From positions 124,001-188,000 of the forward strand of contig CAXHJY010001173.1 of NCBI GenBank assembly GCA_964016885.1: 64,000 nt of DNA, written 5' to 3'. The DNA comes from Eledone cirrhosa (taxonomy: Eukaryota). A program made the translations under genes and the position numbers. The notes below the pieces were generated by a model that saw only the letters and a program-made list of their open reading frames with translations, had not been told where the DNA came from and did no database searches. Shown piece by piece: positions 1,086 through 63,454 of this stretch. The stretch's first letter is position 1; every line of letters starts with the position of its first letter.

Positions 1086-1546
1086 TGCAAAAGTTCTATT
1101 TAGATTGTTGGGATACAACAAGCAAATATTTTTATAACTGATATAAAGCACTCGACAAGTATTTGGAGTAAATATACGATATTAACAAATGGAAACTATA
1201 TTTATAAAACCATATCTATTTCATTATACATATTTCAAGGATACCATGTTAAATTATGGTATGCTTTCATCAGACAAAATACAATATATACCAGTTTTAT
1301 AAATAAATATTGACATACCCTTTCAAAATGCAACCGTTACTTTTGGAAGATATCACTATCCCTGATGTCTTCCAAAAGTAACGGTTGCATTTTGAAAGGG
1401 TATGTCAATATTTATTTATAAAACTGGTATATATTGTATTTTGTCTGATGAAAGCATACCATAATTTAACATGGTATCCTTGAAATATGTATAATGAAAT
1501 AGATATGGTTTTATAAATATAGTTTCCATTTGTTAATATCGTATAT
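1086..1546. mobile_element. Family A hammerhead-bearing element, fold-back palindrome, embedded in (TA)n
   Basis: Apparently perfect inverted arms 1172-1350 / 1368-1546 with a 17-nt spacer. The extra tail 1086-1171 resembles the tails of copies at 9926-10033 and 44190-44310. (TA)n on both sides. Confidence 0.85.
1438..1500 (+). ncRNA. Type I minimal hammerhead ribozyme (mirror copy on minus strand at 1218-1280)
   Basis: ATTTTGT-CTGATGA-AAGCATACCAT/ATGGTATCCTT-GAAA-T-ATGT-A-TA-ATGAAAT. Stems I and II pair; predicted cleavage after A1493. Confidence 0.8.
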
Positions 1547-1789
1547 ATATATATATATATATATATATATATATATATATATATATATATATATATATAT
1601 ATATATATATTTATTATAAATAAATATATATATATATATATATTTATATATATATATATATATATATATATATATATATATATATATATATATATATATA
1701 TATATATATATATATATTTATTTATAAATATATATATATGCGCAAAGAAGACAAAATAAAATAAACAAACAAACAAATAAATAAATAAA

Positions 1790-2099
1790 TATATAAACAG
1801 ACTAAATAAAGATGGCGTAGAAATTCAATGCAACGGGATGAATCTATAGCACCACTGACGATGTTGCAGATATACAACGAAAGATTTATGATAAACTATA
1901 TATATGTGTTTGTGTCTATATTGTATCTGTATTACTTTTGACCTTTGGTCAGTCAATGGCAACATTGAGGACCGAATAAATTTGATTACCGATATAGAAG
2001 ACACAGAAGCGAAAAGCGAAAACCAACCAAACAGTGAGTGTGTTCTGTTATTAATTCAGGCAATATTACACAAATATGACCCTCCCCAAGTATAACAAT
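1790..2099 (+). mobile_element. Family C-related hammerhead element (core 1855-1882)
   Basis: CTGACGA-T-GTTG...CAAC-GAAA. Shares upstream ATGGCGTAG and the 3' end ATGACCCTCCC(C/A)AAGTATAACAA(TA)n with the 3042-3640 element. Confidence 0.65.
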
Positions 2100-2135
2100 A
2101 TATATATATATATATATATATATATATATATATAT

Positions 2136-2260
2136 AGTAATAATAATAAATTTGAAGACTAAAATCCAAAGAGGGCTCGATAAGGATAAATATATATCAA
2201 ATATATAAGAACCGTAGAGCAAATATTTATTAAAATAACATTAAAGTTTAAGCAAAGAAT
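2136..2260 (-). mobile_element. Family D terminal segment (inverted pLTR-like piece) fused to a PLE endonuclease fragment
   Basis: Reverse complement matches 42890-42950 plus 43393-43440. The same inverted piece precedes the PLE fragment at 40225. Confidence 0.7.
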
Positions 2261-58687: not shown

Positions 58688-58832
58688 CTTTTTGATTGAT
58701 ACACAATGAATGTATCGCACTTATTTCTCAGCTATACACAGAGATATTTGTAAGATCCAATCAATATGTAAATCAGTAGAAAGTGCTGGAATTACTTACC
58801 TGTAAAGAGAAAAACAGAAGCATTCGTTAAAT
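58688..58832 (-). promoter_or_regulatory. Candidate recursive splice site with a 112-nt RS-exon
   Basis: Minus: TTTAAC (branch-like)..GCTTCTGTTTTTCTCTTTACAG|GTAAGT at 58800/58799; downstream donor AAG|GTAGGA at 58688/58687. Confidence 0.6.
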
Positions 58833-60669
58833 GTTTGAATAAAATATACATTTGAGAAAAAAATTAAACAAACAAAGATACTAAACTGAAAATATTTGTT
58901 ATCCTCATTTGCCATTAACCCTTTGAACAGACAGCCAATCATATGTAAAATTTCTAATGCACGTCATAGACACAAAAATAATTGAAAAAGAGACAGTTGT
59001 TAGTTAAATCTGTAAAAAATACAATAAGTATAGGAACTTAACAAAAATCATTGCCAAAGAACTTAAATTCAATAATGCTGAAAAACTATTGCTGATTATA
59101 TTTACAATCAGTAAGAGGGGGAAAAATATTAAAAAAGTTGTAAACAAACACTACATCCTTAGCTGCATCCAACAGATAAGATGGTGAAAGCATTGCCATG
59201 TGGAACAGCCAGCAGTACCCACTGCATCAGACATTACAACTTGCAAGGTTCTTTCTTCAGATGAGATGCCCTTCTTTCGAGTTGTCAGAGGAAAATAGTA
59301 TTTGGAAGACTGAGGATGACAGAGGGTGGCACCAAATTACCAAGTTGAAAGCAGTGAAACATGTTTTCTTTTGCTGATGCAGTTATATATATAATGATTT
59401 ACATAATAAATGACCACCTAGTATATGCTGTAAAGACATAGAAAACTTGCCAAACAAAGAATCAAGAAGACATTGAAGCTGTTGTAGACATGACAAATTT
59501 CCTAGTGTTGGAGCCATGATAAAATACATGTGGTAATGTGTATACATGTATGTAGGGCTCCCAGCCTTCCTCTAGGTGGAGGCTCCATTTGAGTACTGGT
59601 TAGTATATGACAACATGTCCAATCCTTGATAGAATGTAAAACAGATGTTAAATGGCGATGATATATATGCCTGCATATATAGATATATATGATATATATA
59701 TATATTTATAATATATATATAATATATATATATAATATATATATATATATAATATATATATATATATTTATAATGTATATATAATATATATATATATATA
59801 TTTATAATATATATATAATATATATATATTTATAATATATATATAATATATATATATATATAATATATATATATATATATAATATATATATATATAATAT
59901 ATGTTTTTTTTGTTTTTTTTAATAAAAAACTGCGATAATATTGCATTTTGCTGAACTCCTTACTGTAGAGTTTTTTTTTCAGAATGTTTTTGACTGTTGT
60001 TTCTTGTAAACAAACATTCGTCTCATTCTGACGTCAATAGCCATGTATTTCCTCATGTGCATTTTTCGTGATCACGCATGATGTTGGACTGGCCCGCTTT
60101 AAGATTCCCTTTTTGGCATATTAATCTGCGAGAATTCTGGTTATCGAGTTGAGCTCTGCTGATGATGAACTCCAACCGTGACCATCTCCGCTGAAAGTTT
60201 TCATGAAATAGTCTTACGACTATACAGAGCATTTGAAGTTTTTCCAAATTGAAGGATAGGTATCTTGAACTTTATTTCATCATGAGTTAAGGCTCTACTG
60301 ATTTTTCCCTGGATTTCAATAAATTCTGTGGATGAATTTATATCCTGATTCTGTTTAGGATGAGTTTAAATTATTTTTCCCACATCTTACGTTAACTATT
60401 TTTCTATAAACAGGTTCAGAATGGGGTGCCACTCCTTATGTTTAAGTTTCTCTTAAGCTAACAATGCCTAGATTTCAGGTCTCTATAAGATCTTAAGGGG
60501 TCAGTCATGGTTGATGGATTTAAAGAAAAAGCTAATTCTTTAAAGTTCGACTTAGAGTGACAATGGCCAGGAGAATTCTATAGACCAGTTCAAAATATTG
60601 AGTGCCTATCATACCATTATCTTCAAGTTTCTCTTAAGCTATATTCCAAATGTCAACAGACATATTAAC

Positions 60670-63296
60670 AAACACACACACTCACACACACACACACACA
60701 TACATATATATATATATATACATACACACATACACACACACATATATATATATATATATATATACACACATACACTCATACATACATATACATACATACA
60801 CACATATATATATACACATATATATATGCATATATACATATATACATGTATGCATATATACATATATATATATATATATATATATATATATATATATATA
60901 TATATATACATATATATATATATATATACATATATATATATACATATATACATATATACATGTATGCATATATACATATATATATATATATATAAATATA
61001 TATATATACATACACAGACATACACACATACTAACATACATACATATACACACATATATATATTTATATATACATACACATACATACATGTATACATACA
61101 CACACATATACACATATACACATATACACATATACATATATACACACATATACATACATATCCATACATAAATACATATATATATACGTATATATATACA
61201 CGCATATATATACATACACACATGTATACATAAATCTATACACACACATATACACATATATATATATACACATATATGTCTAGTGAAGGCGTGTGGCTGA
61301 GTGGTTAGAGAATTGGATTCGCAATCGTAAGGTTGTGAGTTCGATTCCTGGACCAGGCGATGCGTTATGTCCTTGAGCAAGACACTTTATTTCACGTTGC
61401 TCCTTCTACCTGGAGTTGCGACCGATAGATAGTATTAGCAATTGGAAAGACCAATGGAAACATTGTTTCCTCGGTCCGATTTGACGAAAGTCGATCGATT
61501 AAAAAATATGTCTATATATATATATATATATATAAATACACATATATATATATATACATACATACACACAACACATATATATATATATATATATATATAT
61601 ATACATACATATATATACATATACACACACATACATATACATACACACACATACATATATATATATACACACACACATATACATATACATACATATACAT
61701 ATATATACATATATATATATATATATAAACATACATATATATATACATATACATATATACATACATATACACATATATATATACATACACACACATACAT
61801 ACATGCATACATATACATACATATACACACACATACACACACATATACACACACATATATATATATATATATATATACATAGTTATGTAATAAACAACAT
61901 AAGGCAATTATTCCATTTACCAGTGGTTTCTTAAAAGCAAAAAATGTTGCTTTCAATCCTCAGAATGAAAAAATCCTGGTCTATGTATGTGTGGTCTATG
62001 TATATCCTGTTTATGTATGTGTGTATGGCTATGTATGTGTATGTGTATGCATGTATATATATATATTTATATTTATATATATATATATGTGTGTGTGGTT
62101 GTATATATGTATGTGTATGTATGGATGTGTTGATATTTATGTGCGTATGTATGTAAGTGTATATGTATGTGTATGTGTGTATTTATATACATGTGTATAT
62201 GTGAGTGTGTATGTATGAGTGTATGTATATATATATATATATATATATATGTAAATATGATAATAATGGAGCTGCGGCGCTGCAAATGGGTTACATATGA
62301 AAAAGTTTGTCCTCATCAGTGGCCTTCCAACCGTCGTAGGCATTTCGTCGCATGTGTGTGTATGTATGCTTTTTTGTGTGTGTGTGTGTGTGTGTTTGCG
62401 TGTGTAGTTTTATTTTATTTTTCCTTTCCTTCTTCCTTCTCCAGCCTCACTTTCATATAGATTGCATTTTTGTTTTTAAAATCCAAATTCAATAAACAGA
62501 CCAGGATTTTTTCATTCTGAGGATTGAAAGCAAAATCTTTTGCTTTTAAGAAACCACTGGTAAATGGAATAATTGCCTTATGTTGTTTATTACATAACTA
62601 TTAAGCTCTGTTGCCTACATAGAGCACTCTTTTTTCCTAGACTTTTCCGATGGAATTACTTCATATATATATATACATATACATATACATATATACATAT
62701 ATATATATATACATATATATATATATATATATATATATATATATAAACATACACACACACATACACATATACATATATACATCATACGTATATGTATATA
62801 TATATATATATACATACATATATACATATATATACATATACGCACATATATACACATATCCACACATACACATATATATATATACACACATATACATATA
62901 TATATACACACATATATATACATATATATACACACATACACATACACATATATATATACATACACACACACATATATAATTATATACACATATATACAAA
63001 TATACACACATATATATACACATATACACACACATATATACACAAATATATACACATATACATACACATACATAAATAAACACATATACACACACACACA
63101 CACATATATATATATATATATATATATATATATATATATATATATACACATACATATATATACAGATACACTCACATACACACACATATAAATACATACA
63201 TATAAATACATACATATACACATACACACACACACATACAAATATATATATACACACACATACATACACACACATATACATATATATATATATAAA
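60670..63296. repeat. Mixed (TA)n/(CA)n microsatellite field
   Basis: Arrays at about 60670-61277, 61512-61880, 61983-62250 and 62662-63296. Confidence 0.95.
61879..62663. mobile_element. Inverted-repeat element with GCTC...GAGC tail
   Basis: Arms about 61879-61982 / 62498-62601; tail GCTCTGTTGCCTACATAGAGC..., then (TA)n. Confidence 0.7.
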
Positions 63297-63396
63297 TACT
63301 GTGTGCTTCTTGCTCATAATAATTTCTATACTTTTCATTTATATATATATATATATAATAAATAAATAACAAAGAACGCTTATAGCATATGCATAT

Positions 63397-63454
63397 CTTT
63401 ACTTGCTAACATTGTTTCATCCGCACTATAAGTGGGACTCATCAGAGCATAAAG
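63397..63454 (-). ncRNA. Type I minimal hammerhead, GUU site, family E-like architecture
   Basis: Minus: CTTTATGCT-CTGATGA-G-TCCCAC-TTATA-GTGCGGA-T-GAAA-C-AAT-G-TT-AGCAAGTAAAG. Confidence 0.78.

Follow-up and report, generated by a model that had tools for sequence, protein, structure and literature searches.

The question raised by this locus of Eledone cirrhosa is what the hammerhead ribozymes are that recur beside (TA)n arrays throughout the window, i.e., the whole 64,000-nucleotide stretch that was analysed. An initial annotation described them as a guild of unrelated ribozyme mini-elements that colonise such arrays and may extend them. A different reading is judged probable here: the type I hammerheads would sit at the 3' ends of Penelope-like elements (PLEs) of Hydra and Neptune type, present as truncated and inverted copies that end at TA repeats, and family J would be a non-coding tandem repeat whose RNA is predicted to form an S-G-C hammerhead, likely inherited from Naiads and likely copied by Hydra or Neptune proteins.

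Type I hammerheads and their Penelope-like parents

All sites listed in the initial annotation contain a CUGANGA core, a GAAA block and a NUH site; the coordinates given there mark motif starts, and the core positions are those of Table 1. The cleavage sites proposed at 1493, 11307 and 44145 are H17 positions. Both copies of family I and all three of family J were missing from that list. In families A', A, B, C, D, E, F, G, H and I, the CUGANGA, GAAA and NUH blocks follow one another in the order C-G-S; three stems surround the core in A', A, C, D, E, G, H and I, and the folds are marginal in the commonest B and F sequences, in which stem I has only 2 bp. A strict type I descriptor returned 7 matches in the window, compared with 0.07 on average over 30 block shuffles. 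Similarly, a relaxed descriptor returned 46 matches in 79 evenly spaced 10-kb stretches of the genome (790 kb in total), compared with 0–3 in 5 shuffles, about 4 of the 46 resembling chance matches that were retained in the counts. In an Rfam search of the whole window, no hammerhead appeared among the 150 listed of 386 matches, and those listed are TA-driven noise. By motif and shuffle statistics, the type I hammerheads of the window are genuine and are predicted to self-cleave; on their own, they would be unremarkable.

Of the ten type I families, eight can be followed back to PLEs of Hydra or Neptune type, which contradicts the description of an unrelated guild. The families were also said to lack similarity outside the core; B and C are 81% identical over 97 nt at the 3' end, with sister ORFs (57–64% at the amino-acid level) as parents, and an alignment of A with A' gives 66% across 118 nt. 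Instead of mini-elements, the copies are ends of long elements, truncated on the 5' side and in many cases inverted, and the inversion junction differs in nearly every copy. The noted attachment of C and D to PLE coding fragments holds genome-wide, with an ORF end 188–190 nt upstream in 31 matches of C and an ORF start 201–203 nt downstream in 10 matches of D. For the other families, an ORF end lies about 310 nt upstream in 23 matches of B, 1.8–2.1 kb upstream in 6 matches of A' and 1.4–1.5 kb upstream at 2 loci of F, while G, H and I have a parent ORF in one locus each; these match counts include overlapping fetches of single places. Parent ORFs of A, E, J and K were sought in genome loci, and none was found. 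Amplification of family A in units, as a MITE, was ruled out because its junctions vary from copy to copy.

The parents of D, A', G, H and Hyd2 possess a CxCx5C linker, the third cysteine of which is missing from the family I parent (one locus). RWR and DKT occur in the D parent and DKT in Hyd2, the remaining Hydra-type ORF pieces ending short of this region. A C-terminal GIY-YIG without CCHH was read from the translations of the Hydra-type parents, and Pfam returned a weak GIY-YIG in 2 of 7 proteins, plus an unrelated D5_N match. The B, C and F parents combine a Cx2-5CxxC linker with CCHH in the C-terminal GIY-YIG. Named from these motifs, the D, A', G, H, I and Hyd2 parents are Hydra-type, and those of B, C and F are Neptune-type, in a motif-only naming that does not separate Neptune from Nematis.

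Table 1. Elements and predicted ribozymes in the window (positions counted from its first letter)
Feature	Positions	Strand	Details
Family A' 3' end and tail	1087..1360	-	Type I hammerhead 1217-1281, core 1273, H17 at 1225; Hydra-type parent
Inverted partner copy of A'	1370..1541	+	Hammerhead 1437-1501, core 1445, H17 at 1493
Family B 3' end, Neptune-type, sister of C	1740..2097	+	Core 1855, 2-bp stem I
Hyd2 (Hydra-type PLE) endonuclease fragment	2270..2683	+	3' end of the family has a changed core
Family C, Neptune-type ORF end and 3' UTR	3040..3640	+	Core 3452, H17 at 3486
Family J, one whole non-coding unit	6798..7335	+	Short terminal redundancy, between two TA runs
J2 type-SGC hammerhead	7172..7279	+	Predicted cleavage after 7221, GAAA 7238, CUGAUGA 7265
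Family E, type I	7990..8390	-	Core 8160, H17 at 8127; parent ORF sought, none found
Family K, TA-flush, without CUGANGA	8415..8637	+	Further copies 12940-13120, 57497-57672, 58031-58219
Family A variant	9781..9891	-	Core 9883, H17 at 9833
Family D inverted pair	10075..11453	.	Cores 10165-, 11269+; H17 at 10127, 11307; Hydra-type parent
Family C copy and tail	12512..12800	-	Core 12777
Family F, minimal hammerhead	21110..21322	+	Core 21201, 2-bp stem I; Neptune-type parent
Family G inverted pair	22063..22255	.	Cores 22108-, 22124+; Hydra-type parent (one locus)
Family C copy	33520..33851	+	Core 33643
Family J1, one whole non-coding unit	35050..35600	+	About 520 nt
J1 type-SGC hammerhead	35432..35539	+	Predicted cleavage after 35481, GAAA 35498, CUGACGA 35525; one mismatch in closing helix
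Hydra-type PLE, RT N-terminal fragment	40496..40912	+	DKT motif, read from sequence
Family A inverted pair	43890..44305	.	Cores 43980- (GAAA mutated), 44103+; H17 at 44145; parent ORF sought, none found
Decayed A-like copy	58376..58492	+	Core 58386, decayed
Family I copy	61878..61970	-	Core 61963
Family J3, 5'-truncated	62251..62350	-	G and C blocks only; core 62319
Family I and tail	62440..62662	+	Core 62517, well-formed type I fold; Hydra-type parent (one locus)
Family H 3' end	63358..63640	-	Core 63445, H17 at 63408; Hydra-type parent (one locus)

TA arrays as insertion targets

The proposed enrichment beside TA arrays is borne out genome-wide, with (TA)5+ within 250 nt downstream of 38 of the 46 relaxed matches, a setting shared by 20.4% of randomly drawn positions outside TA (p = 2e-19) and by 7 of 47 SINE cores taken as a control. 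It had been stated that nearly all hammerheads end flush against (TA)n; this applies to the element end, 40–230 nt past the cleavage site, and not to the ribozyme itself. TA-flush ends were counted in homologous copies of A' (28/29), A (25/29), D (21/29), F (18/19), G (19/19), J (18/19), B (13/24), H (12/24) and I (16/24). Many of the non-flush copies continue into a tail or ORF. Family K, which is without CUGANGA, and the Hyd2 family, the core of which is changed, both end at TA, and the ribozyme is therefore unnecessary for TA targeting. Family K may be a palindromised hammerhead, although its 3' half is the sole part that resembles G.

It is highly improbable that independent ribozyme mini-elements target and lengthen TA arrays and thereby explain the TA load of the genome. 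Type I core patterns are indeed very common genome-wide (264,250 overlapping matches versus 28,947), and the median TA run beside a 3' junction is 13 units long (n = 170), compared with 10 expected from random splitting (p = 2e-4). However, this null was built on present-day, already split arrays, so that a preference for long arrays yields the same excess, and array extension by the elements does not follow from it. Moreover, an exact known element end lies beside only 52 of 784 merged TA tracts (a lower bound), the families trace to long PLEs, and elements lacking an intact core share the TA ends. What stands of the PLE-driven, TA-targeting system first proposed is the PLE link and the TA preference, both of which are largely published already.

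For the PLE-derived copies and family J, insertion may begin with the ribozyme cutting a tandem transcript once per unit, after which the unit would be circularised, as proposed in PMC4209133. A GIY-YIG endonuclease would then nick the (TA)n array, as the account in PMC8557442 suggests, and an internal AUAU of the RNA could anneal to the nicked end and prime reverse transcription, since the junctions fall where the element itself continues as ATAT or TATA. In this putative order of steps, copying through an intact ribozyme and round the circle would generate truncated, inverted, unit-plus and multimeric insertions, all of which are observed structures.

The predicted permuted hammerhead of family J

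Family J returned 19,298 pattern matches in the genome, compared with 10 for the reversed pattern, and occurs in tandem arrays of 5 and 4 units at a spacing of 445–706 nt; no PLE-like ORF was found in 20 loci. Its non-coding tandem units with one hammerhead each are those of a non-LTR retrozyme, but the conserved core is arranged in the non-circular block order S-G-C and not as in type I. In family J, the hammerhead is read as rearranged and not as decayed, which the initial annotation did not recognise. A type II hammerhead was ruled out, since neither stem II nor stem III forms locally when the blocks are read in that order. In stem II, which contains a four-way junction, A9 is followed by one base pair only (UA 21, UG 20, AU 5, CG 3, other 2); because block C is thus not contiguous with the multi-pair stem II expected of type SGC, J represents a variant rather than a plain member of that type. 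Covariation predicts that stems I, II and III cross as pseudoknots, that a fourth helix links stems I and II at their outer ends, and that the closing helix of the four-way junction holds both RNA ends.

The J alignment comprised 2 window copies and 49 of 58 fetched copies, the 58 having been chosen by hand for their diversity among the first 100 places listed; 8 visibly 5'-truncated copies and L439, nearly identical to L438, were omitted, and the truncated copy L401 entered the 51-row pairing count and not the tree-aware count. Over the 51 copies, 93.1% of cells are paired, stems I, II and III all covary, and 17 of 34 pairs change on both sides. Double-changed cells number 147, compared with at most 38 when slid, a control favoured by derivation of the structure from the same sequences, and 0 of 500 shuffles were as high. 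In the tree-aware count, 11 double changes fall on internal branches (null mean 0.18, maximum 3 in 2000), as do 12 pair breaks, 3 of them from 1-nt misalignment. The interaction helix changes on both sides in 4 of 5 pairs, with a sixth pair contributed by RNAalifold, and divergent subfamilies retain stems I and III with new sequences. Each helix is short and only weakly stable (-0.7 to -7 kcal/mol), the terminal pairs 45-72 and 68-98 do not form in 22 of the 51 rows, and pseudoknot-free folding recovers the hairpin, the interaction helix and stem III only. Rfam gave only sub-threshold snoRNA matches on 35400-35580, which were rejected, and the J pattern had 0 matches in metagenome contigs. The search pattern fixed the G and C blocks; in the S block, which lay outside it, U16.1 is kept in 50/50 and H17 is A or C in 50/50, and N7 is the sole variable core position. 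On this model, J is predicted to be a self-cutting, non-circularly permuted hammerhead that is present in high copy number.

Naiads and known systems

Naiads have been described as being without a canonical hammerhead, with some records flagged only HHR_core or HHR_half_core (PMC8557442). Read by eye from published consensus sequences, in part of 54 records, a J-like fold ends 9 Naiads from five phyla (Naiad_Bfor, Amil, Aacu, Anas, Plae, 4_Dst, Obim, Ovul and Esco), with the same helices in different sequences. The hairpin loop and two linkers of J recur in the Octopus ends, and 4 nematode Naiads display the block order C-S-G. Weak spots are a 2-bp stem I in Bfor and a weak distal stem II in Esco, and the whole ends of three bivalve Naiads contain no CUGANGA. 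In the Eledone genome, Naiad RT motif patterns gave 1 and 4 matches, compared with 104 for the Hydra motif; the search for an intact Naiad yielded one decayed RT remnant, one decayed Octopus-Naiad-like ribozyme without an ORF (L452) and four DKA matches that were read at the level of the motif. No J-type ribozyme joined to an ORF was found in the genome, so that the Naiad descent of J rests on shared architecture: the Naiad ORF, with N-terminal GIY-YIG, CxC, DKA and RT, is missing from J, and only the 3' fold is common to both.

Two other readings of the fold are to be weighed. J may be a conserved non-catalytic RNA element descended from a ribozyme, such as a PLE protein binding site; K spread although its core is missing and Hyd2 although its core is changed, PLE hammerheads cleave slowly in vitro, and stem II offers one base pair before the junction. 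This is nevertheless unlikely, given the invariance of U16.1 and the exclusion of G from H17 outside the search pattern, the confinement of core variation to N7 and the retention of the same core across five phyla. Little probability is likewise assigned to a real fold in which two or three tandem units together build the active ribozyme and helices between molecules take the place of the pseudoknots, as in dimeric PLE hammerheads. Tandem arrays of J do occur, minimal PLE hammerheads are reported to cleave only as dimers (PMC4209133), and covariation is blind to cis versus trans pairing; however, the fixed short linkers (3 nt between the stem I and stem II strands) and the interaction helix match cis-acting SGC ribozymes, stem III of J is not palindromic, and autonomous Naiads, the units of which are kilobases apart, share the compact layout.

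The evidence leans towards Naiads carrying hammerheads in non-circular order: those of ctenophores, corals, acanthocephalans, ostracods and cephalopods would have the order S-G-C, opened at A9 and containing a four-way junction, and those of nematodes the order C-S-G, the two being circular permutations of one ancestral fold. J would then be an active retrozyme of that type, outliving its Naiad parent and now riding Hydra or Neptune proteins into TA arrays, and non-circular hammerheads would thus be high-copy in animal genomes. No earlier report of permuted hammerheads in Naiads or J-type elements was found in a literature search. If this holds, the published anomaly of Naiads lacking the hammerhead of other endonuclease-bearing PLEs would be gone, and standard descriptors would be overlooking a whole class of genomic ribozymes. 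Non-circularly permuted hammerheads would move from rare environmental RNAs to animal genomes, four well-paired natural C-S-G examples would join a type known from two sequences, and a backbone opened beside A9 would constitute a new architecture.

Among known systems, canonical hammerheads and (TA)n insertion have been published for Hydra-clade PLEs, including Hydra-1_Obim of Octopus (Craig et al. 2021, PMC8557442), whose stem III resembles that of family I. As described there, these elements share with the present families the C-terminal endonuclease, DKT, RWR/RWK, CxCx5C and YRDD, as well as inverted copies, tails, the canonical type I hammerhead and insertion into (TA)n. The present set differs in number and not in kind: it comprises at least six Hydra-type families, its 3' UTRs are longer and one family has a changed core. 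PLE minimal hammerheads are reported in many families per genome (Cervera and De la Pena 2014, PMC4209133), with an extra base after A9, a palindromic stem III, opposite-strand pairs 100–700 bp apart and mostly truncated single copies, as here, whereas the parts of that account drawn upon contain no TA analysis and no permuted forms.

Naiads in cephalopods share with J the (TA)n preference (PMC8557442) and, from the published consensus sequences, the 3' fold, J differing in having no ORF. Animal non-LTR retrozymes (Cervera and De la Pena 2020, PMC7229834; Li et al. 2026, 10.64898/2026.07.22.740005) resemble J in their non-coding tandem units, single hammerhead per unit and PLE-like insertion; they are described with a type I hammerhead and units of about 300–390 bp, in contrast to the S-G-C fold, 445–706 nt units and strict TA ends of J. 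Earlier reports of a rearranged block order are confined to sequence of microbial and environmental origin. In Eckert et al. (2023, PMC10085705), HRIMA-1 comes from metatranscriptomes and type CSG from two metagenome sequences, and block C is assumed to be contiguous with stem II. J shares with these types the block order, core bases, short stem I–II linker and interaction helix, and its order and spacing match those of the validated SGC-3 ribozyme; it differs in that the fold sits in animal retroelements and in that most of the stem II strand is supplied from the 5' side via the four-way junction, which breaks the assumption of an uninterrupted block C.

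Type I hammerheads and the TA tracts beside them

All type I cores listed in the initial annotation are present in the window, and the cleavage sites predicted there (1493, 11307 and 44145) are correctly placed. The strict type I descriptor gives seven matches in the window, against a mean of 0.07 in 30 shuffles, and the relaxed descriptor gives 12; in a 790-kb sample of the genome (79 evenly spaced 10-kb stretches), the latter finds 46 matches versus 0–3 in five shuffles, a density above that of shuffled sequence. Across the 3.0-Gb assembly, overlapping matches to a loose core pattern number 264,250, compared with 28,947 for the reversed pattern. 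The enrichment of (TA)n beside the hammerheads is borne out, with TA at most 250 nt downstream in 38 of the 46 matches against 20.4% expected; the association is strong and directional (18/46 upstream), and a SINE control gave 7/47. Runs of (TA)5+ make up 8.6% of the window versus 4.4% of the 79 stretches, and the repeats appear similar to published Octopus repeats. At least six further type I families, absent from the window, occur at other genome loci (L043, L046, L051, L060, L071, L074, L082, L092 and L093).

The initial annotation had further proposed that a ribozyme system targets TA and may extend the arrays. The association with TA stands; the ribozyme, on the other hand, is dispensable for it, because one TA-flush family (K) lacks CUGANGA and a family of Hydra-type Penelope-like elements (PLEs), Hyd2, has a changed core. 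Extension of the arrays finds little support: TA runs at junctions are slightly longer (median 13 versus 10 under a simple splitting model, a biased null), and exact known element ends were seen next to only 52 of 784 TA tracts, a lower bound.

Features of the window and of comparison loci in the genome (G000, the Eledone cirrhosa assembly; C1, one of its contigs; L-numbers, fetched loci; window, G000:C1200:124001-188000)
Feature	Position	Strand	Observation
Family J core	7265	+	in copy J2, 7172-7279
Family J core	35525	+	in copy J1, 35432-35539
Family J core	62319	-	
Family K	8415-8637; 12940-13120; 57497-57672; 58031-58219		abundant; retains GAAA and a stem III-like hairpin similar to family G
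Hyd2	42850-42950; L192-L214		young, 98-99% identity; core fixed and non-canonical (CAGAAGA, no U16.1); related canonical form in genome
Minisatellite/satellite arrays	14060-17330; 26560-28650; 50890-52800		long
LINE fragment	28800-30000		broken; endonuclease-like sequence
95-bp satellite	30250-32990		CTGATGA (-) in every unit; no GAAA within 50 nt
Tc1/mariner-like element	55230-56490		inverted ends; broken transposase
Classical retrozyme	G000:C1:1241766-1244284		at least 9 type I hammerhead units repeated in tandem, 311-nt spacing
Penelope/Poseidon-like ORF	L219:1-1545		further PLE type in genome
Decayed S-G-C ribozyme	L452 (G000:C1:229903710)		nearer the Octopus Naiad form than J

Penelope-like parents of most type I families

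First-look candidates in the genome number 713–2,889 per type I family. The families had been described as unrelated outside the core, which is contradicted by alignments of B with C (81% over 97 nt) and of A with A' (66% over 118 nt). The ORFs of B and C are sisters that combine a Cx4CxxC linker with a GIY-YIG domain of the CCHH type; the hammerhead lies ~190 nt behind the ORF in C and ~310 nt behind it in B, and family F sits 1.4–1.5 kb behind a third Cx4CxxC/CCHH GIY-YIG ORF (two loci); from their motifs, the parents of B, C and F are classed as Neptune-type. Families D, A', G, H and I are linked to ORFs with YRDD or CxCx5C (through one locus each for G, H and I), the D-linked ORF additionally carrying RWR and DKT, and their parents are classed as Hydra-type. 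No parent ORF was found for A or E in the genome loci examined. Copies of the type I families end at two fixed points, with the tail present or absent, and their inversion junctions vary from copy to copy, a structure also reported for PLE insertions in PMC8557442. That paper likewise describes Hydra elements that carry canonical hammerheads and insert at (TA)n, one of them from Octopus, and PMC4209133 covers the diversity of PLE hammerheads, their opposite-strand pairs and truncated copies; the finding of the initial annotation, as written, is mostly known already.

A predicted permuted hammerhead in a non-coding repeat

The new part is family J, which carries a predicted permuted ribozyme and occurs beside the type I motifs. 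Each of its three cores in the window has GAAA at 27 nt upstream and lacks it downstream. All three are part of a non-coding repeat, and a genome search with GAAATNNC-N17-CACTGANGA gives 19,298 matches versus 10 for the control. Tandem arrays of five and four units occur, the units spaced at 445–706 nt. Among 58 fetched copies, 48 have a TA end within 125 nt, eight run into the next unit and two do neither, and the junctions concentrate where the unit's own sequence goes on as ATAT. The closest matches to J1 are 96–98% identical to the window copy, and the family therefore seems to have been recently mobile. Searches of the genome found no J ribozyme joined to an ORF.

The predicted fold begins at the 5' end with a closing strand, a hairpin, the distal stem II strand, an interaction strand, a stem III strand with U-H and a stem I strand; it continues with a 3-nt linker, a stem II strand, GAAA, a stem III strand, a linker and an interaction strand, and ends with a stem I strand, CUGANGA, one base pairing with the base before GAAA, and a closing strand. 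On 51 copies, 93.1% of cells are paired and 17 of 34 pairs show double-sided change (stem I 4/7, stem III 2/5, interaction helix 4/5, and additionally the core-adjacent pair, hairpin, distal stem II and closing helix), with 147 double-change cells versus at most 38 when the model is slid. A tree-based count places 11 double changes on internal branches (null mean 0.18) and finds 12 pair breaks (null mean 22). U16.1 and a non-G H17, neither part of the search pattern, are each present in 50/50 copies, and in more distant subfamilies stems I and III persist in different sequences, a single mismatch occurring in some. Two copies in the 790-kb sample and two in the window fit a generic S-G-C descriptor, versus 0–1 in five shuffles. 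Points against the model are its short helices, two terminal pairs that do not form in 22/51 rows, and nested folding that recovers only part of it. The modelled fold is very probably real, and self-cleavage of J RNA is predicted with good confidence.

Probable Naiad ancestry and comparison with known systems

Naiad PLEs are said in PMC8557442 to lack canonical hammerheads, eight records being flagged HHR_half_core. The 3' ends in its consensus file were read by eye, with partial coverage, in passages holding some core strings; strings broken across line ends escape such a reading, and several passages are ambiguous. Within that coverage, the S-G-C order, the interaction helix and a 5'-supplied stem II occur in Naiad_Bfor, Amil, Aacu, Anas, Plae, 4_Dst, Obim, Ovul and Esco, which represent six independent sequences from five phyla, and two further records have the S-G-C order. 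All six helices are fully paired in Plae, 4_Dst and Acropora; weaker folds are those of Bfor (stem I of 2 bp) and Esco (weak distal stem II). Except in Esco, the upstream strand supplies the G-C pair adjoining GAAA, and thus the backbone is open after A9. Naiad-1, -2 and -3_Nbra and one more record have the C-S-G order, a circular permutation of S-G-C, with full stems I, II and III plus an interaction helix of 9–13 bp; this type previously came from two sequences, according to PMC10085705. Three bivalve Naiad 3' ends, taken whole from the PMC8557442 supplement, contain no CUGANGA; two of them have in common a conserved, GC-rich block that follows the stop codon.

The Octopus Naiads and J have the hairpin loop and two linkers in common, as judged by eye, and differ in every stem. 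Naiads look rare in this genome (motif matches of 1 and 4 versus 104 for a Hydra motif); at the single locus examined, what is left is a decayed remnant. Descent of J from a Naiad is probable, and the preferred reading makes J a Naiad-derived retrozyme presently mobilised by Hydra or Neptune proteins, the change of partner itself being somewhat favoured. Behind the observed element structures, end positions, covariation and parent links may lie a cycle in which the ribozyme would cleave the transcript, circularisation would follow, an endonuclease would nick TA, and priming would occur at an internal AUAU. Since copies stop 40–230 nt beyond the predicted cleavage site and J makes multimers, a circular or multimeric template fits, rather than a cleaved linear one; such a template is the model of PMC4209133.

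No report of non-circularly permuted hammerheads in animals was found in the non-subscription literature searched, and the supplement of PMC10085705, apart from the taxa of its 'SGC variants', gave no match to Octopus, Mollusca, Metazoa or Eukaryota. Compared with the ribozymes in that paper, J has the S-G-C block order and the spacing of the validated SGC-3; in J, unlike in SGC-3, the 5' side provides the interaction strand as well as the greater part of the stem II strand.
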